Source of the DNA: Escherichia coli | GTDB taxonomy: Bacteria > Pseudomonadota > Gammaproteobacteria > Enterobacterales > Enterobacteriaceae | Assembly: GCF_003334785.1 (NCBI RefSeq) | Contig: NZ_QOWV01000008.1 | Direction: 5' to 3' (one strand) | Length of the DNA stretch: 64,000 nt | Shown here: piece by piece, positions 5,576 to 41,625 of the stretch | How the letters are laid out: the number at the start of each line of letters is the position of its first letter | How positions within the stretch are numbered: position 1 is the stretch's first letter | Position numbers and translations under genes: made by a program | Notes under the pieces: model-generated | Databases searched by the model: none | Told to the model about the DNA's origin: nothing | The model's input: only the letters and a program-made list of their open reading frames with translations

Positions 5576-6394
5576 ATGAAACTGACAACACATCATCTAC
5601 GGACAGGGGCCGCATTATTGCTGGCCGGAATTCTGCTGGCAGGTTGCGACCAGAGTAGCAGCGATGCAAAACACATTAAAGTTGGCGTTATAAATGGCGC
5701 AGAACAAGATGTCGCGGAAGTCGCTAAAAAGGTGGCAAAAGAGAAATATGGCCTCGATGTTGAACTGGTAGGATTTAGCGGTTCGTTGCTACCGAACGAT
5801 GCGACAAATCATGGCGAACTTGATGCGAATGTCTTCCAGCATCGACCCTTTCTTGAACAAGATAATCAGGCGCATGGTTATAAACTGGTAGCGGTGGGAA
5901 ATACGTTTGTCTTCCCTATGGCGGGTTATTCCAAAAAAATCAAAACCGTGGCGCAAATAAAAGAAGGCGCGACAGTGGCGATCCCCAACGACCCGACCAA
6001 CCTTGGTCGCGCACTTTTACTGTTGCAAAAAGAGAAGCTAATTACTCTGAAAGAGGGAAAAGGGTTATTACCTACCGCGCTGGATATAACCGATAATCCT
6101 CGTCATTTGCAGATTATGGAACTCGAGGGGGCGCAGCTCCCGCGCGTACTGGATGATCCCAAAGTTGATGTAGCGATTATCAGCACCACTTACATTCAGC
6201 AGACCGGGCTTTCTCCGGTGCACGACAGCGTATTTATTGAAGATAAGAATTCGCCGTATGTGAATATTTTGGTGGCACGGGAAGATAATAAGAATGCAGA
6301 AAACGTGAAGGAATTTCTGCAATCTTATCAATCACCCGAAGTCGCTAAAGCGGCAGAAACCATTTTTAACGGTGGCGCGGTGCCTGGCTGGTAA
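5576..6394 (+). CDS. nlpA: lipoprotein-28, methionine-binding NlpA family
   Basis: 272 aa, lipobox LLAGC near N-terminus, MetQ/NlpA-like sequence. Confidence 0.8.
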   Translation: MKLTTHHLRTGAALLLAGILLAGCDQSSSDAKHIKVGVINGAEQDVAEVAKKVAKEKYGLDVELVGFSGSLLPNDATNHGELDANVFQHRPFLEQDNQAHGYKLVAVGNTFVFPMAGYSKKIKTVAQIKEGATVAIPNDPTNLGRALLLLQKEKLITLKEGKGLLPTALDITDNPRHLQIMELEGAQLPRVLDDPKVDVAIISTTYIQQTGLSPVHDSVFIEDKNSPYVNILVAREDNKNAENVKEFLQSYQSPEVAKAAETIFNGGAVPGW

Positions 6395-6397
6395 TTC

Positions 6398-7321
6398 TCA
6401 CTTATGCCGCGCCGGACGATTTATTTTTCTGGCGCGGCGACGGGAATCCATTGAAATCAAAATCACCGATGACAGAATCAGCAGCGTTCCCAGCCAGTCC
6501 GGTAATGTGAACGTGATCCCCAGCAACAGCAAAGAGAGTAGCGCGCTACTTAATGGTTCTGCACAGCTCAAAATGCTGGCTTTTGGACCGCCAATTAATT
6601 GTGCTCCTTTCAGGTACAGACTAAATGTCAGGGACGTACCAATGACCACCAAATAAAAAAACGCCAGAATCAAACTGCCGTTAACGACAAAGTTTGTTCC
6701 TTGTCTGGCATAAAAAGGCAACAGAATCAGACCGCCAATCAGCATACTCCAGCCGACGACTGGTAACGTGCCATAGCGGGCAATTAGCGTTGAGGGATAG
6801 GTGGTATAGAATGCAGCAGCAAATGCCGAGGCAATGCCCCAGAACAACGCGGCAGGAGAGATCGATAATGACGTCGGATTACCGTGTGTCACCAATAAAA
6901 AAGTCCCGACCAGCGATGTCAAAATAGCGCAGAAAACCAGAATGCCCGGGCGCGATTTACGCACCAGTGAGAACCAGGCGACGATAATCGTCGGTGAGAG
7001 GAATTGCAGCACCGTTGCCGTGGCTGCGTTCGATTTTTCGATGGTTAGCAAAAAAGTGAGCTGTACAGTTAGCGCGCCAACCACGGAAAAAATCAGCAGG
7101 CTAATGGCATCTTTATGATTGTTAATAATAGAAAAGATTTTATCGCCATGAACAAATGACAGCGTCAGTAGAATCAAACCGGCGAATATCAAACGCGTCA
7201 TAGTCAAAAACTGCGACGACATCTGGCTTTGCTCCATGATGTATTGCGCGCAGACCCCTGAACTTCCCCACAACACGGCGGCAATCAGAACGTTCAGCAT
7301 CCCCTTTCTGGTGGAACCCAT
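6398..7321 (-). CDS. yicL: EamA/DMT family transporter
   Basis: 307 aa, ~10 TM segments, position between nlpA and setC. Confidence 0.7.
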
Positions 7322-7431
7322 TTTTCCCTCTGCATACTGTTTTGTCGTTTATGTATGCAGGCATGATAGCAAAAATGGCGAGGATGGCTCTGTTTGCGCC
7401 ACGCCGATTTTTCTTAGCCCAGACTGGTGAG

Positions 7432-8616
7432 CTAAATATCTTTAATAAACAGCAGGCAAATCATCGCAATACCCAACATCCCTATCGCCAGCCAGAACAA
7501 CGCATGGTAGCTCCAGATTTCAACCATAATTCCGTCAACAGAGCCGGCGATAATCCAGCCGACGCGTGAAGTATTTGCATATAACGTTGTCGCAGAGCCT
7601 ATTTTTTCAGGCATCAAGTCCTGAAAATAAAGCATGCCGATACCACAGAGAATACCAAGGAAGATGGCATTAAGAATTTGCAATTCCAGCTCAACCGCCG
7701 GAGTCGTCGCCATGAGTACGCTGGCGTAAAAACACATTCCACTCACGATAGCAATGAGCATTAATAGTCGCTTGCCAATACGTTTCATGTAATAGCCTGC
7801 GATTAACATCATCGGAATTTCCAGACCGGCAGCGATACCAATCATTTCTCCAGCCAGTTTATCGGTTAGATGCAGTTCATCAATAATAAATAGCGGCATA
7901 TTTATCATGTAGAGATTATTCGCCGCCCACATCATTGAACAGACCACAAAAAGTAGCCGCGTATCCCGCTTCCTGTGGGTGGAGGGTAAAATTTCTACGG
8001 GTTGGGTAACGACAGGAATATTTCTTTGTATTGATGGCAAAAACAACCAGACTATCAGTCCGCAAACAACAAATGCGATGGCAGCGGTGAGATACATCAC
8101 TTTAAAACTAAATCCCATTGCCAGTTCATAAGCGAGCGGTGGCCCGATAACCCAGGCAAGCGAGATCTGAGCACGTAAAAATGTACTGAACATGACCGTC
8201 TCACGGCCTGTTCTGTCGGCGTGTTCACGGGCGAGGGCGAACATTTGCGGGTTTGCGGTGGAAGCAAAACTACTCAGAAGTACGCCCGTTGAGAGGAGAA
8301 TGAAGTAGTTGCGATTCCACGCAAAAAGCGTGCAGGCCAGCACTCCAAATAAGCAACATAGCAGAATCAGTAATTTACGGTCGCCTTGTTTATCGGAGTG
8401 CCTTGCCAGAAATTGACTGACCAGAATTCCCATAATAGCGCTACCGGTGAAGAAAAAACCTACCATTATAGGACGGGCTTTCAGTTCATCTGCGAGGAAT
8501 ATACTTAGGGTAGGAGTCTGAAGAGCGCCCGCAATACCCGTCAGAAAGGCGACAAGTAAAAATGCCGCGGCAGTGAGATCAAGTATTTTTGATGGAGTGG
8601 TAGCCGTTTTTTGCAT
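7432..8616 (-). CDS. setC: MFS sugar efflux transporter SetC
   Basis: 394 aa, 12-TM MFS; neighbour of selC in E. coli. Confidence 0.8.
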   Translation of the reverse strand: MQKTATTPSKILDLTAAAFLLVAFLTGIAGALQTPTLSIFLADELKARPIMVGFFFTGSAIMGILVSQFLARHSDKQGDRKLLILLCCLFGVLACTLFAWNRNYFILLSTGVLLSSFASTANPQMFALAREHADRTGRETVMFSTFLRAQISLAWVIGPPLAYELAMGFSFKVMYLTAAIAFVVCGLIVWLFLPSIQRNIPVVTQPVEILPSTHRKRDTRLLFVVCSMMWAANNLYMINMPLFIIDELHLTDKLAGEMIGIAAGLEIPMMLIAGYYMKRIGKRLLMLIAIVSGMCFYASVLMATTPAVELELQILNAIFLGILCGIGMLYFQDLMPEKIGSATTLYANTSRVGWIIAGSVDGIMVEIWSYHALFWLAIGMLGIAMICLLFIKDI

Positions 8617-9248
8617 TCTTCTGAATCACCGGGCGAAAAAATATAACTGAGTTACAAATAAGTACCAGTCGAATGAGTATTGTATTAAGAATTTTTGAGT
8701 ATCGCTGATACAACCAGAAAGCAATGCTAGCGCAATATTATAGGGCCAGCAATTGAGATTATTAGTAAAAGCATGTTAAGAATTAATTACCGAATTTATA
8801 TATTAATTATAGTAAGGCAATGAGCTATTTTTGATAGTAAAAATAAAACAAGTTGATTTGATATATTAAATGAACAAATTAATCTTGATGGCAGTCTGAT
8901 TATTGGTGAAGTTTATAGTCAGTTTTTTTCGCCAGCGGTTAAAGAAATAGAATAGTCGTATAAAAAAGGGTGTTCTGGGGCGAGTAAAACAACATCTTCA
9001 CCTTAATGGCGATACAGTTGGCTGAGAGTCAGCAGGGGGGCAAATCACCTGCAAATAAACACGGCGCATACTGGCGTGAATATCGCGGATGCGTTCGAGG
9101 ACAGAAGAACCGACAGGCGGATTCTTCAGCCGCTCATCGTCCATCACAAAACCTTAGACCAGGTATTCCTGAAGCCGATTGAATATTGAGCAGTAGAAAA
9201 TATCTGGATTGACAGTATTACAAGGGGTTGGAGAACGTCAGGAGAGGC

Positions 9249-9273
9249 ATTTTGGCGGAAGATCACAGGAGTC
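9249..9273. repeat. attL core: duplicated 3' end of tRNA-Sec
   Basis: 25-nt attttggcggaagatcacaggagtc identical to 21074..21098; sequence diverges immediately on both sides. Confidence 0.85.
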
Positions 9274-9399
9274 AAAATTGACATATAACAATTTGATTCC
9301 AATCGTTTATATTTATCAGCTCTAATTCATTTATACACATCCTTATACACATAATATCTGTCGATTAATTTTTACACGTATCTTCACGCACGTTAACTC

Positions 9400-9700
9400 A
9401 GGAAAAAAATTTTTTTTCGAAAGAACTGTTCACACTGTTCACCTTTCTGTTTTCTCCTTTTATTTCAGTTTGATAGGTGGTGAATAATGGGTGAAGGGTG
9501 AACATTCGATTCTTCACCTCCGGCATTCTGCCGGTGTGACTTGTGCAGGGGATTAATCCTCCGCACTGAAATCACACAGGGAGAAAAAAGTTTTTTTGAT
9601 TTGATTGTTCATCTTTCGTTTTTCTCTTTTAATTTCAGTGTGATAACGGGTGAATATACGGTGAAGGGTGAACAGTGGATTGTTCACTTTCGGGGAATTC
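9400..9700. repeat. crr-like region: two ~120-bp direct repeats carrying TGTTCACC/GGTGAACA iterons
   Basis: Unit 1 about 9403..9525 and unit 2 about 9583..9700 share (a)8-9ttttttt...tgttca...tttctc...atttcagt.tgata..ggtgaa...ggtgaagggtgaaca; iteron motif matches the P4 alpha-binding repeats. Confidence 0.7.
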
Positions 9701-9705
9701 AGGGA

Positions 9706-9731
9706 TAAAAAAAGACCGGCAGATGCCGGTC
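9706..9731 (-). terminator. rho-independent terminator after alpha
   Basis: Minus-strand hairpin gaccggcatctgccggtc followed by TTTTTTTA, directly 3' of the alpha stop at 9739. Confidence 0.7.
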
Positions 9732-9738
9732 AGATGAG

Positions 9739-12072
9739 TCAGGCTGTTGCAGGGTCGTCACATTTCGGCAGCCAGTCGCCGTAGCTTTCCTCTTTCAGCG
9801 TCAGGTTGGTCTGTATCCCCTGTTTGGTATGGCGCTTCTCGTAATTCAGTCCGTATTCCTTCAGCATCACCGGCAGCCCCAGCCCGAACATTTTCAGACT
9901 GAGTACATTCCGGTAGCCGTTTGCCTCCATGTAGGCCAGATAGGCGTGATAGAGGTATTTACGGTAATTACGCGGGATGATACTGGCGTTCCCCATATAC
10001 ATGCCGCTGGTCTGCGGCAGGGTTTCCAGATAGCCGATAAAATCAAACGTCGGGTCGGCATCCCGTTTGATGTTCAGTGCCTCGTCTGAGTTCTGCTGGG
10101 ACTGAAGCAGTGACCGGGCGAGCATCGGGTCGCTGAACTTCTGCATCAGGTAACGCACGATGACCGCCAGCTCGCGGGTGATTTTGTCCTTAAGCTGCGG
10201 GTCGCGCTCCTGCGGGGCTATCTGTTCCGGGAAGTGAATAATCACCCGCCGGCGTGACACGCCGCCGCTGCGGTCGGTGAAGCGCATCGGGTTATTGTTC
10301 ACGGCCAGAATCACCGCCGGGATGTGCGTGGAGTACGCATCCCGGTATTTCGGGTCAACGGACACCGCATCGCCGCCGGTGATGGCCTTGAGTCCGGCAC
10401 CGTCGCCGCTCCATTTTTCCTGGTCCGGCAGGCGTATCAGTGAGAAGCCAGTTAACGCGGCACGTTCACGCGGGGATTCCAGCGTCTCGATGGTGGCCGA
10501 CGTGGCGTTATCCTCACCGGCCAGCAGGGTGGCTATTTCGGCCATGATACTTTTGCCGCTGCCGCCGGGACCGGTCACCTCCAGAAAGAGCTGCCAGTCG
10601 TAGCGGTTTGCCAGCACCATAAACAGTGCGGCCAGAATCACGTCGCGTTTTTCCGCACGGCCACCGGCGGCACGGTCAAGCCAGCGCCAGAATGCGGGGG
10701 CGTGGGTTTCCAGCGTTTCACCTTCCACCGGCGGGGTGAAATCCACATCGCACAGGGCGCGCATCCAGTGTGACGGACTGTGCGGGTGGAACGTGCCGTT
10801 CTGCGTGTCGAGCACGCCGTTACGAAAGCCAATCAGGCGGCGGGAGGGGGCTTCCTGCTGCGGAATAATCAGCTTCAGGGTGTCCACCACGGAGGCCACC
10901 TTCCCGGAGGAGAACGGCGCGCGCAGACGCTGAAACAGCCCGGCCACATCCCGGGCAAAGTCCTGTGGTGGCAGCACCTTCCAGACACCATTTTCATAGC
11001 GGGACAGAAGCTGGCCGTTGGCATCGACCGCGAGCGCCTCGCCGTAATGCTCATAGATACGCATGGCCTTTTCGCTGGTACTCATGGCGGAAAACTCCGC
11101 TTCGCTCATGGTGTCGAACGGGCTTTCAGCCGGTGGCCGGATGGCATCATAAATGGCCTTACGGGTGGTTTCCCCGCCGTACTGCGTGAAGGCATCATTC
11201 CAGTCACCGAAGACCGGCGGCAGGGCAACAACGCCCTCACACGCATCTGCGGCTGCGGCGGCTTTTTTCTGGCCGTCACCGCTGAGGTCACGGTCTGCGG
11301 CAAGGACAATCTGACAGGCCGGATGCTTCTGCCGGGCAAGGCTGGCCAGAGAAAGGAGGTTCACGGAAGAAAGCGCCACCATCACCGTTTCACCGGTCAG
11401 GTGATGTACGGTAAGTGCGGTCGCGTATCCCTCCGCTATCCACAGACGTTTTCCGGCCTGATTCTGTCCTTCAAGGGTGTGACAGGTGCCCCTGACCTGT
11501 CCGCCTTTCAGGGTGCGCTTACGGCCGTCAGCACTGATTAACTGAAGGTTAACCAGTTCGCCGCTGTCGTCATACAGTGGCACCACAAGGTCACCGGCGC
11601 GCCAGCTCACGCCACCGGCTCTGTGTGTGCCGGTCAGCATCCGGCATTCCCGGCCGGGAAAGCCCTTGCGGGTCAGGTAGGCGTTACCGGTTCCGGGACG
11701 GGTTTTCGCCATCAGGGTTTGTGCCAGTGCGGCGGCGTTCTTCCGGGCGGCTTCTGTTTCAGCACCGGCGGCGGCCGTCACTGCCGGGTCAGCCGGGGGC
11801 AGGCAGCCGGTCACGGCAGCCACCTTTGCGGCCGCGTCGGACGGGGAAACACCAAACACCTTTTCAACCAGTTTCAGGCCGTCACCGGCACCACACTGAT
11901 TGCAGTACCAGGTGCCGCGCCCCTCCCTGTCATCAAAACGGAAACGGTCACTTCCGCCACAGACCGGACAGGGCTGATGACGGTTTTTCAGCACCTGAAT
12001 CCCCAGCGACGGGAGAATACGCGGCCAGTGGCCGAGCGCATGGCTGACGGTGGCGGTTACGTTCATTTTCAT
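9739..12072 (-). CDS. P4 alpha-type primase/helicase
   Basis: 777 aa, the size of P4 alpha; N-terminal CPVCGG...CNQCG zinc-binding primase motif; Walker A GPGGSGKS in C-terminal half. Confidence 0.9.
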   Translation of the reverse strand: MKMNVTATVSHALGHWPRILPSLGIQVLKNRHQPCPVCGGSDRFRFDDREGRGTWYCNQCGAGDGLKLVEKVFGVSPSDAAAKVAAVTGCLPPADPAVTAAAGAETEAARKNAAALAQTLMAKTRPGTGNAYLTRKGFPGRECRMLTGTHRAGGVSWRAGDLVVPLYDDSGELVNLQLISADGRKRTLKGGQVRGTCHTLEGQNQAGKRLWIAEGYATALTVHHLTGETVMVALSSVNLLSLASLARQKHPACQIVLAADRDLSGDGQKKAAAAADACEGVVALPPVFGDWNDAFTQYGGETTRKAIYDAIRPPAESPFDTMSEAEFSAMSTSEKAMRIYEHYGEALAVDANGQLLSRYENGVWKVLPPQDFARDVAGLFQRLRAPFSSGKVASVVDTLKLIIPQQEAPSRRLIGFRNGVLDTQNGTFHPHSPSHWMRALCDVDFTPPVEGETLETHAPAFWRWLDRAAGGRAEKRDVILAALFMVLANRYDWQLFLEVTGPGGSGKSIMAEIATLLAGEDNATSATIETLESPRERAALTGFSLIRLPDQEKWSGDGAGLKAITGGDAVSVDPKYRDAYSTHIPAVILAVNNNPMRFTDRSGGVSRRRVIIHFPEQIAPQERDPQLKDKITRELAVIVRYLMQKFSDPMLARSLLQSQQNSDEALNIKRDADPTFDFIGYLETLPQTSGMYMGNASIIPRNYRKYLYHAYLAYMEANGYRNVLSLKMFGLGLPVMLKEYGLNYEKRHTKQGIQTNLTLKEESYGDWLPKCDDPATA

Positions 12073-12086
12073 GGTGTTGTTCTCCT

Positions 12087-12407
12087 TCAGTGCAGTACCG
12101 GCGCTTTTATGTGACGGGCACAGAGTTCATCCATCACAACCAGCCCGAGAAAGGACAGCGACGGCGCGGCCTTCAGGGGGCCGGATTCCATTAAATCTTC
12201 CAGCAGGGCACAGGCTATCTGACGCCCTTTTTCCTCACCGTGCTGGCGCAGATAAAAGCCTTCCAGCTCAGCGGCGATGGCCGCCTCCAGTGACTCAAGG
12301 GTGAGATGCGGGTAGCGGTGCTGACGTTCGCACACGGTCAGCCAGGCACAGGCGACAGCGCGACGGTAAAGGGCAGCGCGTAAGACGGGCGGTAAGGGGG
12401 TTTTCAT
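12087..12407 (-). CDS. hypothetical protein, P4-like satellite backbone
   Basis: 106-aa ORF immediately upstream of alpha, same strand. Confidence 0.5.
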
Positions 12408-12542
12408 TTGTTTTCCTCCCTGTGACAGATGACTGCATTCCGTGCCGGTTGCATTAACTGATAAGGCATATCTGCGTCTCCTGAAGACGTGCGTATCCCT
12501 GCGCGAATACGCACATTTAATTTTTCGGGTGTCGTTTTTTAA

Positions 12543-12998
12543 TTACAGATAATTGCGGTAACTGTTATCCGGGGTGATTTCCGGGTCAGGCTCCGTGCGG
12601 GGAATTTCCCGCCATTCCCGCGCCACCGGTGCCGCCCGGCTGACCGGAACAGGGTCCTGCGGGTAAATATCCAGATATTTCTCCCGCCATTTCTGTAATT
12701 CCGGGTCTCCGGCCATTTCTTTCAGTACCGCATGCCGGTTTACGGGGCTGCGTTTAAACAGGTCAGGACGGTCACAGGTAAATTCCCGCAGAAAACGCCC
12801 CAGCGGGATGTCTGTGGTGCGCCCGTCGGCGATGATACGCACAAGGATACTGAATTTACGGCGGTACGGGTTCCAGACAATTTCCGGGCAGCGGTACGGC
12901 ATTTCCCACGGAATACCGTCTTCCAGAATGCCGACCACGGCCACATCGGGAAAACCGGCAGAACGGTAAATCTCACCGGGCTGGGGAAAATCAAACAT
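12543..12998 (-). CDS. hypothetical protein, P4-like satellite backbone
   Basis: 151-aa ORF, same strand as alpha, in the P4 left operon position. Confidence 0.5.
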   Translation of the reverse strand: MFDFPQPGEIYRSAGFPDVAVVGILEDGIPWEMPYRCPEIVWNPYRRKFSILVRIIADGRTTDIPLGRFLREFTCDRPDLFKRSPVNRHAVLKEMAGDPELQKWREKYLDIYPQDPVPVSRAAPVAREWREIPRTEPDPEITPDNSYRNYL

Positions 12999-13857
12999 GC
13001 GTCCTGTCTCCCCGGTCTTTCTGCTGGGCGAGAAAATCGCGGCACAGGCCTTTGGCTTTCAGCTCATTCAGCACAAAATCAATATCTTCATTCAGGTAAC
13101 TGAAAATATGCGGAATGTAGAGCTGATGCAGGCCGGAGAGTTCACGGTGAATCAAATCACCCCCAACAAACTGGGATACGGCGCTGGCGCGGTTGAGCTT
13201 ATGGTAAGCCTCAATGCTGAGGTGTTCACGGGCGTCATGACGCGCTGAGACGGTCTGAGGGGCTTTTTTATTACGCACGGGACACCTCCACCACCGGCAG
13301 ACGGGCAGCAAGGGAGAGCACATAGTCACGGACAAGGGAACGGCGGGCGCTGCGTTCATCACCGGCGACGGTGCGAAGCATACAGATACGGGGATGACGG
13401 TCTGTGCGACGGACAGCCGCAAACACAAAGACAAATTCAGGGTGTGAGGGGGTAAGGGTTGTAGCCATGATGGCAGCCTCCTGTGAATAGCAAATAACGC
13501 TATCGCCGGAGTTCTCACGCTCGATGGCGATAGCCCAGACGGGGGTGAGAATACCGGCTTCACAGGATACCGGCCAGCCCGGAGGCTGCCCCGCCTGAGC
13601 TACCATTGACTCAGAGGCATAACATGCGATTGCGAACAGGATCATACCTGCACGGCAAACCACACGCCACACCATAATCTGGTGCTCTGTGGCGTTGATT
13701 GCGACACAAAAAAAGACGCATGGCGCGTCATATGTCGCCTGTGAATTGCTCGGGTTCTCACGCCCGGCTGCCGATTTTGCGGCAGCGGAAAAACTATATC
13801 CGCAAATGCCGGAAAAAGGCAAGCCAGAAAAAGGGAGTTTTTGCAGAGCGGGCATCA
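12999..13857 (-). other. P4-like immunity/early region with unresolved small ORFs
   Basis: Overlapping ORFs in several frames (12991..13563, 13271..13906, 12997..13248); only C-terminal parts look protein-like; position corresponds to P4 kil/cI-RNA/eps. Confidence 0.3.
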
Positions 13858-14124
13858 TCATGCGTCGTACCCCCGTTTGCGTCCGGCAATGCGTCCGGCC
13901 ATCCATGCGGTGACTTCAGAGTGCAGCCAGGCCACATTTTTACCGCCAAGACTCACCTGCGGCGGAAATTCCCCCTTACGGATGAGTTCGTAGATGGTCG
14001 AGCGTGACAGGCCGCACAGGTGCATCACTTCCGGAAGACGTAAAAAACGCTCCTGTGTGATGTCCGGCAGCGGCATCAGTGGCGTCACAGGGGCGGGAGA
14101 CGGGGAAGAAAAAACAGCTTGCAT
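13858..14124 (-). CDS. AlpA/Vis-family DNA-binding regulator/excisionase
   Basis: 88-aa ORF with [48 protein letters not shown], typical AlpA-type HTH; true start may be the internal Met (MPLPDITQ). Confidence 0.8.
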
Positions 14125-14403
14125 CGGGCTACCTCGTTAATGTCCATACAGCACCGGATAAGTCCGTCCGGCTTCAGGTAGCGCTTTATTTTGTGAATAT
14201 TTTCAGCAGACGCAACAGGGGGGATTTGTTCCGGCAGCCTTACAATGCTTGTGTATTTTTTGTTCATCTCCACTTAAAGTCATTTAAAGCCACTTAAAGC
14301 AATTCGTAATTTTTATAGTGAAATACAAATCGTTTTTTCTTATTCATTCCCGGCGAATTAATAAAAACAAACAGTAATAAACAGCACAAAAAGCCCATCA
14401 ACG

Positions 14404-14508
14404 GGTGAACAGTGGTGAACAGACGGTGAACAGTCATTACTGCGATTGTTCACCCTTTAACTTACTGTATTACTTATCTTTTTTCTTATGGTGAACAGAG
14501 GTGAACAG
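14404..14508. repeat. ori-like iteron cluster
   Basis: Five direct GGTGAACAG copies (14404, 14414, 14425, 14490, 14500) plus one inverted TGTTCACC (14447) between vis and sid. Confidence 0.7.
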
Positions 14509-14586
14509 TAAAATATAAAAAAACAAACAGTAAGCCGGTTTTTCCTACGACCTTTTCCTGGCTTGCCGGTGTGAGGATGAGTCTCC

Positions 14587-14604
14587 TGTGTCAGGGCTGG
14601 CACA
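14587..14604 (+). promoter_or_regulatory. TGT-N12-ACA activator site of a P2/P4-type late promoter upstream of sid
   Basis: tgtgtcagggctggcaca lies ~75-90 bp upstream of the sid ATG; Ogr/Delta-activated late promoters carry TGT-N12-ACA near -55. Confidence 0.5.
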
Positions 14605-14676
14605 TCTGCAATGCGTCGTGTTGTTGTCCGGTGTACGTCACAATTTTCTTAACCTGAAGTGACGAGGAGCCGGAAA

Positions 14677-15411
14677 ATGTCTGACAACACCATCCCTGAA
14701 TATCTGCAACCCGCACTGGCACAACTGGAAAAGGCCAGAGCCGCCCACCTTGAGAACGCCCGACTGATGGATGAGACCGTCACGGCCATTGAACGGGCAG
14801 AGCAGGAAAAAAATGCGCTGGCGCAGGCCGACGGAAATGACGCTGATGACTGGCGCACAGCCTTTCGTGCAGCCGGTGGTGTCCTGAGCGACGAGCTGAA
14901 ACAGCGCCACATTGAGCGCGTGGCACGCCGGGAGCTGGTACAGGAATATGACAATCTGGCCGTGGTGCTGAATTTTGAACGTGAACGCCTGAAAGGGGCG
15001 TGTGACAGCACGGCTACCGCCTACCGGAAGGCACATCATCACCTTCTGAGTCTGTATGCAGAGCATGAGCTGGAACACGCCCTGAATGAAACCTGTGAGG
15101 CGCTTGTCCGGGCAATGCATCTGAGCATTCTGGTACAGGAAAATCCGATCGCCAACACCACCGGCCATCAGGGCTACGTCGCACCCGATAAGGCTGTCAT
15201 GCAGCAGGTGAAATCATCGCTGGAACAGAAAATTAAACAGATGCAAATCAGCCTCAGCGGCGAGCCGGTTCTCCGGCTGACCGGACTGTCAGCGGCAACA
15301 CTTCCGCACATGGATTATGAGGTGGCAGGCACACCGGCACAGCGCAAGGTGTGGCAGGACAAAATAGACCAGCAGGGAGCAGAGCTTAAGGCCAGAGGAC
15401 TGCTGTCATGA
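14677..15411 (+). CDS. sid: Sid-like capsid size-determination protein
   Basis: 244 aa from ATG 14677 preceded by GAGGAG; alanine-rich coiled-coil protein; first gene of a sid-delta-psu operon. Confidence 0.75.
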   Translation: MSDNTIPEYLQPALAQLEKARAAHLENARLMDETVTAIERAEQEKNALAQADGNDADDWRTAFRAAGGVLSDELKQRHIERVARRELVQEYDNLAVVLNFERERLKGACDSTATAYRKAHHHLLSLYAEHELEHALNETCEALVRAMHLSILVQENPIANTTGHQGYVAPDKAVMQQVKSSLEQKIKQMQISLSGEPVLRLTGLSAATLPHMDYEVAGTPAQRKVWQDKIDQQGAELKARGLLS

Positions 15412-15908
15412 TTTACTGCCCGTCGTGTGGACATGTTGCTCACACCCGCCGCGCACATTTTATGGACGATGGCACCAAGATAATGATTGCACAGTGCCGG
15501 AATATTTATTGCTCTGCGACATTTGAAGCGAGTGAAAGCTTTTTCTCTGACAGTAAAGATTCAGGAATGGAATACATTTCAGGCAAACAGAGATACCGCG
15601 ATTCACTGACGTCAGCCTCCGGTAGCATGAAGCGCCCGAAAAGAATGCTTGTTACCGGATATTGTTGTCGGAGATGTAAAGGCCTTGCACTGTCAAGAAC
15701 ATCGCGGCGTCTGTCTCAGGAAGTCACCGAGCGTTTTTATGTGTGCACGGATCCGGGCTGTGGTCTGGTGTTTAAAACGCTTCAGACCATCAACCGCTTC
15801 ATTGTCCGCCCGGTCACGCCGGACGAACTGGCAGAAAGCCTGCATGAAAAACAGGAACTGCCGCCAGTACGCTTAAAAACACAATCATATTCGCTGCGTC
15901 TGGAATGA
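15408..15908 (+). CDS. delta: Delta, duplicated Ogr-type zinc-finger late activator
   Basis: 166 aa with two Cys4 motifs (CPSCGH...CRNIYC and CRRCKG...CTDPGCG); start overlaps sid stop. Confidence 0.8.
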   Translation: MIYCPSCGHVAHTRRAHFMDDGTKIMIAQCRNIYCSATFEASESFFSDSKDSGMEYISGKQRYRDSLTSASGSMKRPKRMLVTGYCCRRCKGLALSRTSRRLSQEVTERFYVCTDPGCGLVFKTLQTINRFIVRPVTPDELAESLHEKQELPPVRLKTQSYSLRLE

Positions 15909-15981
15909 GGGCTGCCGGTTAACACCGGCCGTCGCCGCACACCGTATTTTTATTCTTCAGCATGATGAGAAAGAGATAACG

Positions 15982-16554
15982 ATGGAAAGCACAGCCTTAC
16001 AGCAGGCCTTTGACACCTGTCAGAATAACAAAGCAGCATGGCTGCAACGCAAAAATGAGCTGGCTGCGGCCGAACAGGAATATCTGCGGCTTCTGTCAGG
16101 AGAAGGCAGAAACGTCAGTCGCCTGGACGAATTACGCAATATTATCGAAGTCAGAAAATGGCAGGTGAATCAGGCCGCCGGTCGTTATATTCGTTCGCAT
16201 GAAGCCGTTCAGCACATCAGCATCCGCGACCGGCTGAATGATTTTATGCAGCAGCACGGCACAGCACTGGCGGCGGCACTGGCACCGGAGCTGATGGGCT
16301 ACAGTGAGCTGACGGCCATTGCCCGAAACTGTGCCATACAGCGTGCCACAGATGCCCTGCGTGAAGCCCTTCTGTCCTGGCTTGCGAAGGGTGAAAAAAT
16401 TAATTATTCCGCACAGGATAGCGACATTTTAACGGCCATTGGATTCAGACCTGACGCGGCTTCGGTGGATGACAGCCGTGAAAAATTCACCCCTGCGCAG
16501 AACATGATTTTTTCGCGTAAAAGTGCGCAACTGGCATCACGTCAGTCTGTGTAA
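15982..16554 (+). CDS. psu: Psu polarity-suppression protein
   Basis: 190 aa, MESTALQQAFDTCQNNKAAWLQRKNELAAAEQEY..., recalled as P4 Psu. Confidence 0.8.
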   Translation: MESTALQQAFDTCQNNKAAWLQRKNELAAAEQEYLRLLSGEGRNVSRLDELRNIIEVRKWQVNQAAGRYIRSHEAVQHISIRDRLNDFMQQHGTALAAALAPELMGYSELTAIARNCAIQRATDALREALLSWLAKGEKINYSAQDSDILTAIGFRPDAASVDDSREKFTPAQNMIFSRKSAQLASRQSV

Positions 16555-16718
16555 AATTCCCCGAAAATCCGCCCGTTTTTACTGAAAAAAGCCATGCATC
16601 GATAAGGTGCATGGCTTTGCATGCGTTTTCCTGCCTCATTTTCTGCAGATCGCGCCACGCCCGGCGTGGCCTGAGCGTGTCAGCGCAACTGCATTAAAAC
16701 CATCCCACAAAGCGGGCG

Positions 16719-16737
16719 GGCGAGGCGGGGAAAGCAC
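16719..16737. other. cos site (P2/P4-type 19-nt cohesive end)
   Basis: Exact ggcgaggcggggaaagcac, ~165 bp downstream of psu as in P4. Confidence 0.8.
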
Positions 16738-16979
16738 TGCGCGCTTACTTAGATGCGTGAATTTATTTATATCACTGAAGTATATCCCTAAGCTCATTTC
16801 TCAAAGGGCCTATGGTTGCACAAGGTTGTACCATGGCATTCAAAACTTTTTAAACCAAGAATGACAATTTCATTATTAGGCCGGAATAGTTACTAATTTT
16901 AGTATAGGTTGCGATTGTTTAACGCATTTTTTATTATGATGCAGATTTTATTATTACTAATGGGGTGCAAAAAACACGT

Positions 16980-18269
16980 ATGAAAAAAAATGTTGGTAAC
17001 CGCAATAAAAATTCTGATGTGCTTATTCTTAAAGGTATGTTGAACAATTTAAAAGATGGTTTAAATAATTTTGAATTATTGCTTAAATTGCAGTTTAAAA
17101 TATTGGTGTGCGTGATGAGATGTGAGCGGAAAATTAAGTTTCTTAAAAAGAATAATGCTCATTTAAGGTCGGTGTTAAAAAAATCAAGACTTCCAAAAGA
17201 AAAATCTCTGGCAGTAAAAGAAAAAATTAAATACAATTCTGAAGTAATTACTGCTGAAAAATTCAAGATATATACGTATAAAATGTTTGGCGATGCTGTT
17301 GCATTTTTATACATCGATAAATATACAATTAAACAGTTATACTACAATGTACATAATTACAATGTTAAAGAAACGTCGGGGGATTTGAGCGGTAAGTCTG
17401 GATTGCGAGAGGAATGGGAATGCGTAAAACTTGCATGTGATAATAAAGTTCCAGCTCTGTTGCATGATATTACAATGAGTATAAGGCATGGAGATGTATC
17501 ACTTTTAGGTAAAGATGAGCCATTTATTATTGAGATGAAATCAAGCTCAAATACAAATAAGAGAGTTGAGCGGCAAAAATCTAACCTTGAAAAATTAGGA
17601 AGTTTCATAGCAAAAGACGAAGCTGAAAATTTTCGAGGGATTCCATTGTTAATCAGGAAAAATTTGTTAACTGAAGAGGAATCATATTCTCAGGTTTTAA
17701 ATGAGTGTCTTAATGATTGTCGCAGCAAAGGAATGGCTTTGGTTGAAGCTGAAAAAGGATTTTATATCTGCGCAGTTAGAGAAGGGAATATGGCTTCTAT
17801 GCTAGAAAATATAGATTTTGATGAAAAAAAAGAAGTTTTTCCTGTATTTCTCAATCAATATAAAAATAATGGGGAGTGGCTACCATTAACACCATTTACA
17901 CTATTAATTAACGATCCTTACGATCTCCATGATTTTATCGAAGGGGAATTAACAATAGCTTGTTTTTTAATGCTCGATGAATACAAAAAAATTGCTATAG
18001 AACTAGGCTATGAATTAGTTTTTGTTTCTAATGATGAATATAGTATCTTGTTAAAAAGAATTGGTGAAGATATTATATTTGGTGTTTCCTGGCAAATGTT
18101 GTTAAGAGTTCCATTAGAGATGATGTCCATGTCATGGTTGATAAAAGAAAGTATTAATATATATAGTAACTCCCTAGAAAATAGCACCCATAATGATGAA
18201 TTAAATCAGGGGCAGGGAAATACTAAAAATTCATTATTCGAAAAATACAAGAATTTATTTTCTTACTAA
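16980..18269 (+). CDS. hypothetical cargo protein A, possible PD-(D/E)xK nuclease
   Basis: ORF 16965..18269 (GTG) or ATG 16980; strongly AT-rich, Lys/Asn-rich; motif LHDITMSIRHGDVSLLGKDEPFIIEMK; no homologue recognised. Confidence 0.6.
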   Translation: MKKNVGNRNKNSDVLILKGMLNNLKDGLNNFELLLKLQFKILVCVMRCERKIKFLKKNNAHLRSVLKKSRLPKEKSLAVKEKIKYNSEVITAEKFKIYTYKMFGDAVAFLYIDKYTIKQLYYNVHNYNVKETSGDLSGKSGLREEWECVKLACDNKVPALLHDITMSIRHGDVSLLGKDEPFIIEMKSSSNTNKRVERQKSNLEKLGSFIAKDEAENFRGIPLLIRKNLLTEEESYSQVLNECLNDCRSKGMALVEAEKGFYICAVREGNMASMLENIDFDEKKEVFPVFLNQYKNNGEWLPLTPFTLLINDPYDLHDFIEGELTIACFLMLDEYKKIAIELGYELVFVSNDEYSILLKRIGEDIIFGVSWQMLLRVPLEMMSMSWLIKESINIYSNSLENSTHNDELNQGQGNTKNSLFEKYKNLFSY

Positions 18270-18301
18270 TTAAGCATTGTAATTATATTTGATTTTTTCT
18301 A

Positions 18302-18335
18302 CAGGCTTGGACGGAATCATATAGCTCCAAGCCTG
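18302..18335. terminator. bidirectional hairpin between the convergent cargo genes
   Basis: caggcttgga (18302..18311) pairs with tccaagcctg (18326..18335); flanked by T-rich sequence. Confidence 0.5.
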
Positions 18336-18370
18336 TTGTGTCGGTATCAAAAAGAAAGTGATATTATTGT

Positions 18371-19744
18371 TTATCTAATATATTTTGTTACTTCCATATT
18401 ATCTTCATCGTCAAAAGAGTACTCAACCATCATACGACTATTTTTACCTGACTTAATATCTTGAAGCCAAGCTGAGGCAACCCTAGGGTCTAAATGCTGT
18501 TTTCTACTCAGCTCATTATTTTTTAGCCTATCAAGCCTTATTGCTCTTTGAAGAGTTTTATCGATGTAGTCTTCCAAATCAATGGACAACCTCCTTTTTG
18601 GATATAAATATTGGTATTCATCACACAATAGTACTCCTGGTAATTTAATTTCGCGTAGGTCGAAAGAATACCAACTATAGTTTTTAGACTCATTAGCTAA
18701 TTCCGAAACTAGATGAGCCCCATTTTGTTGTAAGAGAGATATTTTGTGATCGATGCTAATGTCAGATATTTCTCTTAAAGACTCAAAATGCATGTTTTCG
18801 TAGATAGTATTTAATAAAATACTCTCCATGTAAGAGTAAAAATCAGTACCATCGATGATAATATTAGTTTCATTGTAGACTGCAAGAGACATAAGATATA
18901 TGAAGAAAACTGCGGGAGTACTATTACCTCTGTTTATATCAAGTCTAAGGGAGTTGACATAATCAGGCGGAGAGTTTGAGAAAATTTCTCTTATTAACCA
19001 GTCTGGAATAGTGGTTCTTGTTAGAATGTCAGCGTTCAAACTTGAACGACATAAAAAAATACACATCTTTAATTTTAATTTTATTGAAAATGATGGGAAT
19101 AAATGATCGATGAAAGATAAAATACATGTATACTCTGCTAAGTCTGTTTGTTGCAACTTTTCTTTTATTTCATTTTCAAGCATTTTTAATTTAAAAAAAT
19201 CATTCCTTTTTTCTAATATTTCCCAATGAAATAATTGCTCCTGAGCGTACGCATGCCCCTCTAAAATAGCTAGCATGCTTAAAGGAATGTTTAGGATTTC
19301 TTGATAATTATTAACATACCCAAAGAAATGGACTCTGATATACACACCCATATCGTCATCATATTGTAATGATGCTTTAATATTTTTATAATTTAATTTA
19401 TTAGTGCTGTTGTTTTTGAAGTGATAATGTAAAGTAATTTCAGTATCATCAACTAATAAATTATCAAAAGCCTCCTTTGTTTCATATTTAAAATAGTTAT
19501 ATAGCCGACATGAATAATTTAACCCCCAGTGAGTTGTAGAACAATCAAGTAAATGGATTGTTTCATGGAGATATGTTTTATAAAATTCAATTTCGCTATC
19601 ATCAAAATCATATATGCTTTTACTGTCTATGATATTTTGTGCTTGCGGTAAACTTATATTTAATTCATCGTTTGAAATCTCAATTAAATGTGATGAAAAA
19701 TCATAAGAACCCAATGTTTTGCTGTTAAATATACATCCGCTCAT
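18371..19744 (-). CDS. hypothetical cargo protein B, HExxH motif (possible zinc metallopeptidase)
   Basis: 457 aa, AT-rich; N-terminal YLHETIHLLDCSTTH; start ATG overlaps the integrase stop (ATGA at 19741..19744). Confidence 0.6.
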   Translation of the reverse strand: MSGCIFNSKTLGSYDFSSHLIEISNDELNISLPQAQNIIDSKSIYDFDDSEIEFYKTYLHETIHLLDCSTTHWGLNYSCRLYNYFKYETKEAFDNLLVDDTEITLHYHFKNNSTNKLNYKNIKASLQYDDDMGVYIRVHFFGYVNNYQEILNIPLSMLAILEGHAYAQEQLFHWEILEKRNDFFKLKMLENEIKEKLQQTDLAEYTCILSFIDHLFPSFSIKLKLKMCIFLCRSSLNADILTRTTIPDWLIREIFSNSPPDYVNSLRLDINRGNSTPAVFFIYLMSLAVYNETNIIIDGTDFYSYMESILLNTIYENMHFESLREISDISIDHKISLLQQNGAHLVSELANESKNYSWYSFDLREIKLPGVLLCDEYQYLYPKRRLSIDLEDYIDKTLQRAIRLDRLKNNELSRKQHLDPRVASAWLQDIKSGKNSRMMVEYSFDDEDNMEVTKYIR

Positions 19745-20916
19745 AGCAAATCCCCTAAAAGATAATCAGAGTACCATTGAATCATCGTTTTCCTTTGAGA
19801 AAAATATTGTGCGTGATTATAGGTTCCTCGGATATTGTTCTTATCAACATGTGCTAATTGCATTTCAATCCAGGTACTATCAAATCCCTGTTCATGTAGG
19901 ATTGTTGACATTGTATGTCTAAAACCGTGACCTGTAGCACGTCCTTTGTAACCAAGTAACTCAATCACTTGTGAAACACTTTCTTTTGAAATTGGTTTGC
20001 TACGATTGTTCCTGCCAATAAAAATATAGGGATAATGGCCGGTGATAGGCTTTAGCTGTTTAAAGAGGTCTACCACCTGAGTAGACAAAGGTACAATATG
20101 TGGTCTGCGCATTTTCATACGTTCCGCTGGTATCTCCCATATACCTTTTTCGAGGTCTACTTCTTCCCACGTAGCAAAGCGCATCTCCTGCGTTCTTACA
20201 CCAGTCAGCATGACTATCTTCGTAGCATTTTTGGTGATGATGCTACCGGTATAAGCTTCGAGATCCCGAATAAAATGAGGCAATTCTTCGGCAGATAGAA
20301 ATGGATGATGTTTTTGCTTAGGAACGGCCAGAGCGATGGCTAAATCAGGCGCAGGATTGTATTCAGCGCGGCCAGTTATGATTGCGTAGCGATAAACCTC
20401 ACCGCACCTCTGACGTACCTTACGTGTTTTCTCTAGTGCTCCACGCTTCTCTATTCGTCGCAACACTTCAAGAAGTTCTAAGGGTTTGATTTCACTAATA
20501 GGACGTTTACCAATGAACGGGAAAACATCTTGCTCAAATGTTTTAATAATTTCTTCGCGGTAGGCAAGTGTCCAGCGATCGGCTTTATTTGAGTGCCACT
20601 CACGACATATAGCCTCGAATGAGTTTTCTGTTGAGAGCTGCTGTGCCAGCTTTTGGGCTTTACGTTCTTCCACTGGGTCTATGCCGTTTGCAACCTGCTT
20701 CCGAGCTGTATCGCGTTTCTCACGTGCTTCAGCTAGGCTCACAAGGTCGTAGCTACCAAATGACATTAACCGCGCTTTTCCGGCAAAGCGGAAACGGAAA
20801 CGCCAGCCCTTCGAGCCATCGGGATTGATAAGCAATGACAGGCCCTGCCCGTCGTTCAATGTGTATGGCTTGTCTTGGGGCTTTGCTCGTTTGATTTGTA
20901 TATCTGTAAGTGCCAT
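19741..20916 (-). CDS. int: P4-family tyrosine integrase
   Basis: 391 aa; N-terminus MALTDIQIKRAKPQDKPYTLNDGQGLSLLINPDGSKGWRFRFRFAGK typical of P4-type integrases; C-terminal catalytic region with HGFRHT...Y; adjacent to the tRNA. Confidence 0.9.
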   Translation of the reverse strand: MALTDIQIKRAKPQDKPYTLNDGQGLSLLINPDGSKGWRFRFRFAGKARLMSFGSYDLVSLAEAREKRDTARKQVANGIDPVEERKAQKLAQQLSTENSFEAICREWHSNKADRWTLAYREEIIKTFEQDVFPFIGKRPISEIKPLELLEVLRRIEKRGALEKTRKVRQRCGEVYRYAIITGRAEYNPAPDLAIALAVPKQKHHPFLSAEELPHFIRDLEAYTGSIITKNATKIVMLTGVRTQEMRFATWEEVDLEKGIWEIPAERMKMRRPHIVPLSTQVVDLFKQLKPITGHYPYIFIGRNNRSKPISKESVSQVIELLGYKGRATGHGFRHTMSTILHEQGFDSTWIEMQLAHVDKNNIRGTYNHAQYFSQRKTMIQWYSDYLLGDLL

Positions 20917-21073
20917 GTGTATAAGCCAAAAATATGTATAAAAAATCTATACACATCACTATACATATTTTTCATGGATTCAGGGAGATCTTGTCGGACG
21001 GTTACGGATGAGTGATTTACTATATGTTTTGAAAATAAAGGATTTTTAGACTCTCTCGGATGGTGACGGAAGA

Positions 21074-21098
21074 ATTTTGGCGGAAGATCACAGGAGTC
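21074..21098. repeat. attR core overlapping the 3' end of selC
   Basis: Same 25-nt sequence as 9249..9273. Confidence 0.85.
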
Positions 21099-21172
21099 GA
21101 ACCTGCCCGGGACCGCTGGCGGCCCCAACTGGATTTGAAGTCCAGCCGCCTCACCGGAGACGACGATCTTCC
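21078..21172 (-). tRNA. selC: tRNA-Sec (selenocysteine, UCA anticodon)
   Basis: Reverse complement reads ggaagatcgtcgtctccggtgaggcggctggacttcaaatccagttggggccgccagcggtcccgggcaggttcgactcctgtgatcttccgcca, the 95-nt E. coli selC sequence. Confidence 0.95.
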
Positions 21173-21464
21173 GCGCCTCGATTGCTACATGGAGGCGGGG
21201 CGCATTATAGCTACTTCCTTGAGTTTCTACATCCCCCAGATCAGTTTTTTCCGCCTAATACACGCAGCGTATTATCACGAAAGCATTATAGTTCATATAA
21301 AATCCATATTTTACAATGATATATGAGCGGAATTAACGCTACCACGATCACATAAAACAAGAATCATAAATTAATAACCAGATATCGGAATATTCGCTCT
21401 CACAGGGATGGTTTACAAAATGCGTTATCGGTCTCAGCACCCCTATAGCATCAAGGAAAAGTAG

Positions 21465-22847
21465 ATGAAGAGTGAAGTGTTGTCCGTTAAAGAGAAAATT
21501 GGTTATGGCATGGGAGACGCCGCCAGCCACATTATTTTCGATAACGTAATGTTATATATGATGTTCTTTTATACCGATATTTTTGGCATTCCTGCCGGAT
21601 TTGTCGGAACCATGTTTTTGGTCGCTCGTGCACTGGATGCGATTTCCGATCCTTGCATGGGGTTGTTGGCCGATCGAACGCGCTCTCGCTGGGGTAAATT
21701 TCGTCCGTGGGTACTGTTTGGCGCACTGCCATTTGGGATCGTCTGTGTACTGGCCTATAGCACGCCAGATCTCAGTATGAACGGAAAAATGATTTATGCA
21801 GCAATTACTTACACCCTACTTACCTTACTTTATACCGTCGTCAATATCCCTTACTGCGCATTGGGTGGTGTAATCACCAATGACCCGACTCAGCGTATCT
21901 CGCTGCAATCCTGGCGTTTTGTGCTGGCGACCGCGGGAGGCATGCTTTCTACGGTTCTGATGATGCCACTGGTTAATTTAATTGGTGGTGATAATAAACC
22001 ACTCGGTTTCCAGGGTGGTATCGCGGTCCTTTCCGTGGTGGCATTCATGATGCTGGCATTCTGTTTCTTCACCACTAAAGAACGCGTTGAAGCACCACCT
22101 ACAACGACGTCTATGCGGGAAGATTTACGTGATATCTGGCAAAACGACCAGTGGCGGATTGTCGGTTTACTAACCATTTTCAATATCCTGGCGGTGTGCG
22201 TACGCGGTGGAGCGATGATGTATTACGTCACATGGATTTTGGGTACGCCGGAAGTGTTTGTCGCTTTTCTCACCACTTATTGCGTGGGTAACCTGATTGG
22301 TTCCGCTCTGGCAAAACCGCTGACCGACTGGAAATGTAAAGTCACTATTTTCTGGTGGACGAACGCCCTGCTGGCAGTGATTAGCCTCGCGATGTTCTTT
22401 GTTCCCATGCAGGCCAGCATCACTATGTTTGTCTTCATCTTCGTGATTGGTGTGTTGCATCAACTGGTGACACCTATCCAGTGGGTAATGATGTCCGATA
22501 CCGTCGACTACGGCGAGTGGTGCAATGGTAAACGCCTGACCGGGATCAGTTTTGCTGGCACGCTGTTTGTGCTCAAACTGGGGTTGGCCTTCGGCGGCGC
22601 TCTTATCGGCTGGATGCTGGCTTATGGCGGATATGATGCGGCAGAAAAAGCGCAGAACAGCGCCACGATTAGCATCATTATTGCGCTATTCACGATTGTT
22701 CCGGCGATCTGTTATTTGCTGAGCGCGATTATCGCTAAACGCTACTACTCACTCACGACGCACAATCTGAAAACCGTTATGGAACAGCTGGCCCAGGGCA
22801 AACGCCGTTGCCAGCAACAATTCACCTCTCAAGAAGTGCAGAACTAA
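21465..22847 (+). CDS. yicJ: GPH-family glycoside/cation symporter
   Basis: 460 aa, 12-TM; followed by a GH31 gene. Confidence 0.75.
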   Translation: MKSEVLSVKEKIGYGMGDAASHIIFDNVMLYMMFFYTDIFGIPAGFVGTMFLVARALDAISDPCMGLLADRTRSRWGKFRPWVLFGALPFGIVCVLAYSTPDLSMNGKMIYAAITYTLLTLLYTVVNIPYCALGGVITNDPTQRISLQSWRFVLATAGGMLSTVLMMPLVNLIGGDNKPLGFQGGIAVLSVVAFMMLAFCFFTTKERVEAPPTTTSMREDLRDIWQNDQWRIVGLLTIFNILAVCVRGGAMMYYVTWILGTPEVFVAFLTTYCVGNLIGSALAKPLTDWKCKVTIFWWTNALLAVISLAMFFVPMQASITMFVFIFVIGVLHQLVTPIQWVMMSDTVDYGEWCNGKRLTGISFAGTLFVLKLGLAFGGALIGWMLAYGGYDAAEKAQNSATISIIIALFTIVPAICYLLSAIIAKRYYSLTTHNLKTVMEQLAQGKRRCQQQFTSQEVQN

Positions 22848-39633: not shown

Positions 39634-39678
39634 TGCCCACTCCATGTGATATCAATTGCAAAGAAAGTAAATCTGTAA

Positions 39679-39694
39679 CTGTATTTATATACAG
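39679..39694. promoter_or_regulatory. LexA (SOS) box upstream of dinD
   Basis: ctgtatttatatacag matches CTGT-N8-ACAG, ~45 bp upstream of the dinD start. Confidence 0.7.
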
Positions 39695-39854
39695 TTGTGA
39701 GTATCTCACGTTCTCAGTGTGCTGGGCAAAAAAACATCGCAAAATCTGGAGCAGGCACGAAAAACAGAATTGAAAGTTGCGGGGAAGAAAAATGCCGCTC
39801 TGTTTGAGTGGGCGGCATTTGTGAAGGCTGAAAAGTAAGAATTGGCGTTACGAG

Positions 39855-41561: not shown

Positions 41562-41568
41562 TTTTTAA

Positions 41569-41593: not shown

Positions 41594-41625
41594 GTCTGTA
41601 GAAAAGTAAGATGAGGAGCGAAGGC

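Follow-up and report, generated by a model that had tools for sequence, protein, structure and literature searches.

The Escherichia coli contig NZ_QOWV01000008.1 (NCBI RefSeq assembly GCF_003334785.1) carries, within the 64,000-nucleotide stretch that we analyzed as a whole (referred to as the window), an 11,825-bp element that is apparently a complete satellite prophage of the P4 type, located at the 3' end of the selenocysteine tRNA gene selC. Judged from its anatomy, this element can probably still be mobilized by a P2-like helper phage. The interpretation is supported by the conservation of the P4 genes, the replication origin (ori), the Psid and PLL activator sites, the Cox-box-like sites, the CI RNA and the cos core, while the complete integrase, the matching attachment (att) and arm sites, the P4-like genome size and the precise insertion make mobilization likely. 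An earlier note had come to a similar view from the interval 9400-16737, which covers only the conserved core of the element; both att sites and the integrase fall outside it.

In order to position the element relative to known phages, window 6000-20000 was compared with phage genomes using megablast and then with a permuted sequence of satellite phage P4 (NC_001609) using a more sensitive alignment. Megablast matched window 9404-16718 to P4 at 97.7% identity. In the sensitive alignment, window 9404-16744 corresponds to P4 4291-11624 followed by 1-26, likewise at 97.7% identity; 153 mismatches and four indels separate the two. The match thus crosses the cohesive end; its left limit is the annotated start of the cis replication region (crr) in the P4 record and its right limit lies seven bases beyond the 19-nt cohesive end. 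Outside these limits P4 and the window are unrelated, so that the homology breaks at P4 nt 26 and resumes at nt 4291. Eight P4 proteins are encoded at full length, with 98-100% amino-acid identity and no internal stops. The earlier note had named inactivating mutations, found on exact alignment to P4, as an outcome that would contradict it; the exact alignment revealed none in any P4 gene, and no stop codon or frameshift occurs in any of the ten genes. The gene order of the core is canonical (alpha-epsilon-vis-sid-delta-psu-(cargo)-int), and int, psu, delta, sid, alpA/vis, epsilon and alpha are all full length, which places the element in Type A of SatelliteFinder. It is not P4 in the strict sense, as it has neither the P4 int nor a leuX-type attP nor gop-beta-cII.

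The leftmost gene of the core, on the minus strand, encodes Alpha, which acts as primase-helicase and binds the origin (9739-12072, 777 aa, 765/777 residues identical to P4). Its EGYATA motif at residue 214, Walker A motif GPGGSGKS at residue 501 and zinc-ribbon motifs are present, and the substitutions fall outside all of these; against the NCBIfam model of the P4-family primase domain the protein scores 107.6 bits, slightly below the curated cut-off of 108.7. The alpha terminator (t-alpha, 9707-9731, minus strand), visible as a hairpin in the alignment, shows no differences to P4 4604-4628. Further genes on the same strand are orf106 (cnr, copy-number control; 12087-12407, 106 aa, 106/106 identical), orf151 (12543-12998, 151 aa, 147/151 identical), the gene for Epsilon, the derepressor of the helper prophage (12991-13278, 95 aa, 94/95 identical), the Icd-like eta/kil open reading frame (13271-13861) and vis, encoding an AlpA-type excisionase and late-promoter regulator (13858-14124, 88 aa, 87/88 identical). 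The eta reading frame differs from P4 between seqA and cI by an in-frame indel, made up of an 11-bp deletion and a 2-bp insertion that together keep the frame. Vis, described correctly in the earlier note as full length, matches a PHROG family annotated "excisionase and transcriptional regulator". The plus strand carries sid, responsible for capsid size determination (14677-15411, 244 aa, 240/244 identical), the gene for the late-gene transactivator Delta with its two Ogr-type zinc fingers (15408-15908, 166 aa, 163/166 identical) and psu, encoding the capsid decoration protein and Rho inhibitor (15982-16554, 190 aa, 188/190 identical). The Delta substitution C72G affects the linker that separates the two Ogr-type cysteine sets and falls within neither of them.

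The borders of the element are marked by an exact 25-nt direct repeat, ATTTTGGCGGAAGATCACAGGAGTC, whose copies constitute the attL core (9249-9273, a copy of the selC 3' end) and the attR core (21074-21098, within the 3' end of selC). The start-to-start spacing of the two is 11,825 bp, and the pair can be extended to 33 nt at 91% identity. The integration target itself, tRNA-Sec (selC, 21078-21172, minus strand; identified by ARAGORN and with 83.8 bits by the Rfam tRNA-Sec model), is the sole tRNA gene found in the window. We built the empty site in silico by joining window 8849-9248 to 21074-21473 and searched for this 800-nt sequence, as well as for the cargo genes together with int, in 5,426 complete E. 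coli genomes. The empty site is found as a single-piece match of 100% identity in many E. coli chromosomes, for example in ML35 and UMNF18, and 2,484 of the genomes contain 80% or more of it at a single location. The insertion is precise, since a natural empty selC site is restored when the element is removed in silico. The excised circle would measure 11,825 bp, or 101.7% of P4 (11,624 bp), of which the core accounts for 7.34 kb and the remainder for 4.48 kb; a minimal P4 of 7.19 kb accepts a payload of up to 4.43 kb (PMC12239096). A short fragment of a rhuM pseudogene between setC and attL (9013-9174) is present at empty selC sites as well, and a full rhuM gene occupies the equivalent position in Salmonella (comparison locus L010, 1-362); the fragment may be the relic of an older selC island.

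Next to selC lies the gene for a 391-aa integrase (19741-20916, minus strand) featuring Arm-DNA-bind_3, Phage_int_M and Phage_integrase domains. Its catalytic R, K, HxxR, H and Y residues align with those of the lambda and P4 integrases, identifying it as a tyrosine recombinase, here specific for selC. The earlier note was right that int is full length, but this is not the int of P4: with the 439-aa P4 Int it shares 157 identical residues (approximately 40% identity). An int gene adjoining selC, together with flanking direct repeats derived from the selC 3' end, is the arrangement of phiR73-type elements. Candidate arm-type binding sites of the integrase are present on both sides of the att core. 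A tandem pair of TATACACAT with 12-bp spacing lies on the attL side (9332-9352, plus strand, copies at 9332/9344), and the int side (20859-20968) contains a second tandem pair (20948/20960) as well as inverted copies over the int start. Matches to this repeat type number 21 in the window against 11.4 expected, and eight of these are grouped next to the two att cores. P4 has a similar layout, its arm repeats being annotated as 12-bp tandems. The att regions of the two elements do not otherwise align, apart from a 36-nt block adjoining the core (21037-21072), which is approximately 80% identical to P4 4036-4071. Vis is said, in work of Calì and colleagues from 2004, to bind between int and the core. 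By its sequence, this block is a candidate binding site (a Vis box or an integration host factor (IHF) site) of a factor that the two elements share, or might be a part of the int promoter.

The replication sites are those of a P4-type replicon, with Alpha, an iteron-bearing ori and a distant crr. The iteron GGTGAACA/TGTTCACC occurs 11 times in the window, compared to 1.6 occurrences expected, and no shuffled sequence reached 11. Nine of the 11 copies fall into two clusters, 9436-9674 (crr) and 14404-14507 (ori), confirming the claim of the earlier note that two iteron clusters lie on either side of a full-length alpha. In ori, the six copies of the type-1 iteron (14404-14507) are all identical to P4 9310-9413, and the three type-2 repeats, spaced by 10 bp (14270-14299, plus strand), are identical to P4 9176-9205. 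As in P4, these type-2 repeats are at the same time in agreement with the P2 Cox-box consensus TTAAA(G/C)NC(A/C) at 10-bp spacing; the consensus has been described together with the requirement of Cox for derepression of P4 lysogens (PMC3936717). The crr (9404-9693, plus strand) was aligned exactly to P4 4291-4590. All five iterons of its first repeat (9404-9523) are unchanged, the two differences to P4 both lying outside the iterons; the second repeat is discussed below.

Regulatory signals are conserved to a similar degree. The earlier note had drawn attention to a TGT-N12-ACA activator site preceding sid. The site, TGTGTCAGGGCTGGCACA at 14587-14604, is indeed present and is embedded in over 100 bp of sequence that does not differ from P4 9481-9591. 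The bare motif does not exceed chance, with 18 matches in the window against 14.4 expected, and is by itself uninformative; the occurrence before sid is meaningful because it is identical to P4 Psid. A second TGT-N12-ACA sequence (14227-14244) occupies the position of the PLL activator site and has kept the dyad, with three spacer changes relative to P4 9133-9150. The CI immunity RNA (13523-13610, minus strand) is recognized by the Rfam C4 antisense RNA model with 74.9 bits against a gathering threshold of 45, within a region (13443-13610) identical to P4 8340-8507. Its leader target in the seqA region (13709-13799, minus strand) is matched by the Rfam models isrK (71.4 bits) and c4-a1b1 (49.5 bits), both above gathering.

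At the right end of the core, the 19-nt cohesive end GGCGAGGCGGGGAAAGCAC (16719-16737) is exact with respect to P4, as had been stated before. It is contained in a 61-bp cos core (16685-16745) that is common to P2-like helpers and matches P2 at 95%. The sequences flanking the cohesive end differ from P4 by three changes on the left and one on the right, all at positions that are variable among P4, P2 and the Yersinia phage YpM22; to the right of the end, the window reads as P2. Matches to P2-like prophages span 16685-16745 and those to other P4-like elements end at 16744/16745, so that the shared cos core ends where the variable hotspot starts, a boundary that is in agreement with the description by Rousset et al. 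(PMC9122126).

Based on P4 and phiR73, the following cycle can be proposed, in which the continued function of each individual step is inferred. In the lysogen, the replication genes would be kept silent through pairing of the CI RNA with the early transcript leader. Upon infection or induction of a helper, the Cox protein of the helper would bind the Cox boxes upstream of PLL, while the targets of Ogr and Delta would be the TGT-N12-ACA sites in PLL and Psid. Vis and the selC-type Int would excise the element at the 25-bp att cores, and Alpha would bind the iterons of ori and crr and replicate the circle. Epsilon and Delta would turn on the late genes of the helper, Sid would force the assembly of small capsids and Psu would decorate them. 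The helper terminase would then cut at the shared cos core, generating an 11.8-kb linear genome with 19-nt cohesive ends, which in a new cell would circularize and be reinserted into selC by Int. The 4.5 kb between cos and attR, comprising the two cargo genes and int, would travel along. For phiR73, located at selC as well, P2 infection was shown to cause excision, packaging into infectious particles and formation of new lysogens at selC (PMC6868368).

To assess the movement of such elements, the present copy was compared with related ones. The closest relative, in E. coli strain A1, differs at five positions in 11.8 kb, three of which lie in attL or crr, whereas the flanks differ at 3.8 (left) and 14.6 (right) positions per kb. 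The attL core of the present copy is still a perfect copy of attR, while strain A1 demonstrates that attL can decay. We further compared the module formed by the cargo genes and int (window 16980-21098) with comparison loci L005-L008 and L010-L015. Four other E. coli genomes carry an almost unchanged module, with 0-4 differences per kb, next to a P4 core that deviates at 16-23 positions per kb; as the cargo and int are conserved on diverged cores, module swapping is indicated. The same module is found at selC in Salmonella enterica, where it is joined to another P4-like backbone, whose Ogr has a single domain, and in Klebsiella pneumoniae as a decayed remnant with a truncated int. At the level of sequence comparison, the pattern points to modular exchange between satellites across genera, and rapid modular exchange has been described for P4 hotspots (bioRxiv 10.64898/2026.02.27.708500). 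The comparative patterns argue that such elements move and are not proof of movement for the present copy.

A number of observations weigh against mobilization by a helper. The second crr repeat (9584-9693) is decayed: a 9-bp deletion, corresponding to P4 4494-4502, removes one of two tandem TGTTCAC(A/C)C iterons, the surviving tandem iteron is changed from TGTTCACC to TGTTCATC and the last iteron from TGTTCACC to TGTTCACT. In addition, a T-run is shorter by one base, and the spacing of the two crr repeats is 170 nt here compared to 180. The statement of the earlier note that nothing looks degraded is therefore not correct, and its claim that all cis-acting signals are intact, which holds for ori, Psid, the PLL dyad and cos, overstates the case for crr. 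Moreover, Vis is of the P4 type and would have to work with an integrase and att module that are not those of P4, a cooperation suggested by their co-occurrence. A TIR-NLR system has been shown to lower P4 transduction (PMC9122126), and the cargo of the present element might likewise restrict the helper. Among sister elements at selC, one carries an ISEc12 insertion between vis and sid, in the ori region (L008 14320-16622), and in another the eta/ash gene is broken and the cargo A gene split (L006 13271-13819 and 16980-18229). The cargo and int are present in only 10 of the 5,426 complete E. coli genomes, neither the junction of cos and cargo nor a relative of the cargo B protein was found in the viral contigs of IMG/VR, no helper prophage exists in the window, the rest of which is core chromosome, and strain A1 contains no second match to the cos core.

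The crr defect is put into perspective by its relatives. Strain A1 has the 9-bp deletion and the TGTTCACT change and lacks both the TGTTCATC change and the T-run deletion, which are therefore private to the present copy. In the related elements of A38, SC475 and 23CRST007 the two crr repeats have collapsed into one full repeat, 170 bp shorter (L005, L007 and L008, approximately 9240-9575), showing that crr copy number varies naturally. A single crr repeat is reported to be enough for P4 replication. The damage to the second repeat is probably tolerable, and the partly decayed crr represents a natural test of the number of iterons needed for P4 replication.

The observations above can also be read as those of an anchored, domesticated island that looks complete and cannot finish its cycle, be it due to the weak crr, a mismatch of Vis and Int, or a substitution in Alpha, Delta or Sid, and that is retained vertically for the sake of useful cargo. 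The decayed second crr repeat, the 12 substitutions in Alpha and three in Delta, and the absence of any trace in IMG/VR would all fit such an island, as would the sister copies with an insertion sequence, broken genes or a truncated int. However, the ten genes contain no stop or frameshift, all cis sites besides crr are identical or conserved, and the substitutions avoid known motifs. The attL core has remained a perfect copy of attR, even though A1 shows that it can decay, and the element is far more alike between strains than its flanks are. That every copy resides at the same locus, which might suggest anchoring, is expected from a site-specific integrase. Taken together, we consider domestication unlikely, although it is the more serious of the alternatives.

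A different explanation concerns solely the comparative evidence, which would be silent on mobilizability if the elements within diverged flanks were nearly identical because a larger chromosomal segment, introduced by generalized transduction or conjugation, had recombined homologously, without any need for satellite transfer through a helper. In favor of this scenario, the block identical to A1 (7893-21302) exceeds the att sites by 1.36 kb on the left and 0.2 kb on the right. The 0.2 kb on the right, however, consist mostly of the invariant tRNA gene, after which dense differences resume, and recombination in the flanks cannot explain why the cargo and int are found on different P4 cores at selC in three genera, making this scenario quite improbable. 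Finally, the iteron, cos and activator motifs might be chance matches with no P4 element behind them. While the TGT-N12-ACA motif alone does occur at chance level, 7.3 kb of 97.7% identity to P4 and the 11 iterons, where 1.6 are expected, refute this idea, and we regard it as virtually impossible. An element that a P2-like helper can still mobilize thus remains the preferred reading.

The hotspot between cos and int holds two convergent cargo genes with a GC content of 30.7%, compared to 55% in the core. Neither of their products matches Pfam, PADLOC v2.0.0 or NCBIfam. Rousset et al. 2022 (PMC9122126) include the pair (WP_001406847 and WP_000742539) in their Table S1A under the annotation "hypothetical + hypothetical", and it is not among the tested systems in the files consulted from that study. 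Cargo A (16980-18269, plus strand, 429 aa) is a candidate nuclease of the PD-(D/E)xK or NERD-like type combined with a long helical hairpin. Residues D163, R169, D172 and E185-x-K187 are invariant, full-length matches in AFDB50 include proteins annotated as NERD, Nuclease or DUF4263, and the sequence also matches phrog_14906, a family of unknown function. Its structural model is of moderate confidence (predicted local distance difference test (pLDDT) 72, predicted template modeling score (pTM) 0.75) and poor in the motif region itself. Cargo B (18371-19744, minus strand, 457 aa) is a zincin-like candidate with an HExxHxxD...E signature, for which no Pfam or PDB sequence match was found and whose predicted model is poor (pLDDT 49). 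Its family comprises 188 representative clusters and lacks a Pfam entry; H60, E61, H64, D67 and E162 are invariant in 44 members with 15-34% identity to the query. The int stop and the cargo B start overlap in an ATGA (19741-19744), and the same overlap exists in the Salmonella copy (L010 12761-12764); based on this overlap, cargo B is probably co-transcribed and translationally coupled with int. A long perfect hairpin between the two cargo genes (18290-18340, ACAGGCTTGGA...TCCAAGCCTGT) is probably a bidirectional terminator.

Homologs of cargo B with 34-35% identity occur without a cargo A homolog (L017 and L018, 6001-7347; L019, 6001-7356). One is placed among toxin-antitoxin and acetyltransferase cassettes in the superintegron of Vibrio parahaemolyticus, another directly adjoins the tnsA-like genes of a Tn7-like transposon in Idiomarina. 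As cargo B homologs stand alone, the two genes are not an obligate pair. A recent preprint reported that six of eight randomly picked P4 hotspot loci of unknown function conferred phage resistance (bioRxiv 10.64898/2026.02.27.708500), and a role in defense is plausible for the present cargo because of this frequency. By analogy, the cargo genes are plausible candidate anti-phage genes in a known P4 hotspot. Going further, they might represent one or two undescribed anti-phage systems, A as a nuclease in which a coiled-coil hairpin is combined with a NERD-like domain and B as the founding member of an HExxHxxD...E group, that are spread by an intact satellite among Escherichia, Salmonella and Klebsiella; for this extended proposal we see the chances as evenly balanced.

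Between roughly one quarter and almost one half of E. coli genomes contain a P4-like satellite, and these satellites are recognized carriers of anti-phage systems. The kind of element described here is ordinary and already catalogued, and with the precedent of a mobilized element at the same site, another intact copy adds little; the remaining interest is in the uncharacterized cargo. With its near-P4 core and selC-type integrase, the element constitutes a clean natural vehicle for a pair of genes listed in published surveys only as hypothetical. If a P2-type helper moves it, the cargo would be testable in its native context and transferable between enterobacteria.

Elsewhere in the window, the outer lipopolysaccharide core (waa) cluster at 52139-60724 encodes WaaB-like, WaaZ, RfaY and WaaK-like proteins and does not align with strain A1, from which it follows that the strain has a different lipopolysaccharide core type than A1. 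The preceding region, 39601-52138, is only 92.8% identical to A1.

Amongst known satellite systems, phage-inducible chromosomal islands (PICI), including the Staphylococcus aureus pathogenicity islands (SaPI), resemble the element in being helper-dependent, in carrying an integrase, in their similar size and in redirecting helper capsids. They differ in consisting of unrelated gene sets and in being packaged by pac or cos with TerS or Ppi, and they are not known to contain any of the P4 core genes. P4 itself (NC_001609 / X51522) is collinear with the element over the essential 7.3 kb from crr through cos at 97.7% identity. The differences lie in Int, which is only about 40% identical, in the att core, derived from leuX in P4 and from selC here, and in the arm repeats, as well as in the replacement of gop-beta-cII of P4 by two unrelated genes of low GC content; the element additionally has one iteron less in the second crr repeat and the in-frame indel in eta.

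In site and architecture, on which the comparison was based, the element corresponds to phiR73, a P4-like prophage that likewise occupies the selenocysteine tRNA gene and has its cargo at the equivalent position. phiR73 reportedly measures approximately 12.7 kb. Its cargo is the retron Ec73 (Inouye et al., 1991, Science 252:969; Sun et al., 1991, J Bacteriol 173:4171), unlike the pair present here. In overall structure it corresponds to the P4-like satellites that possess a defense hotspot adjacent to cos (Rousset et al. 2022, PMC9122126; de Sousa and Rocha 2021, PMC8628076; bioRxiv 10.64898/2026.02.27.708500), from which the element shows no structural difference: in both, the cargo is inserted between psu/cos and int, and in both, hotspot modules are swapped between cores.

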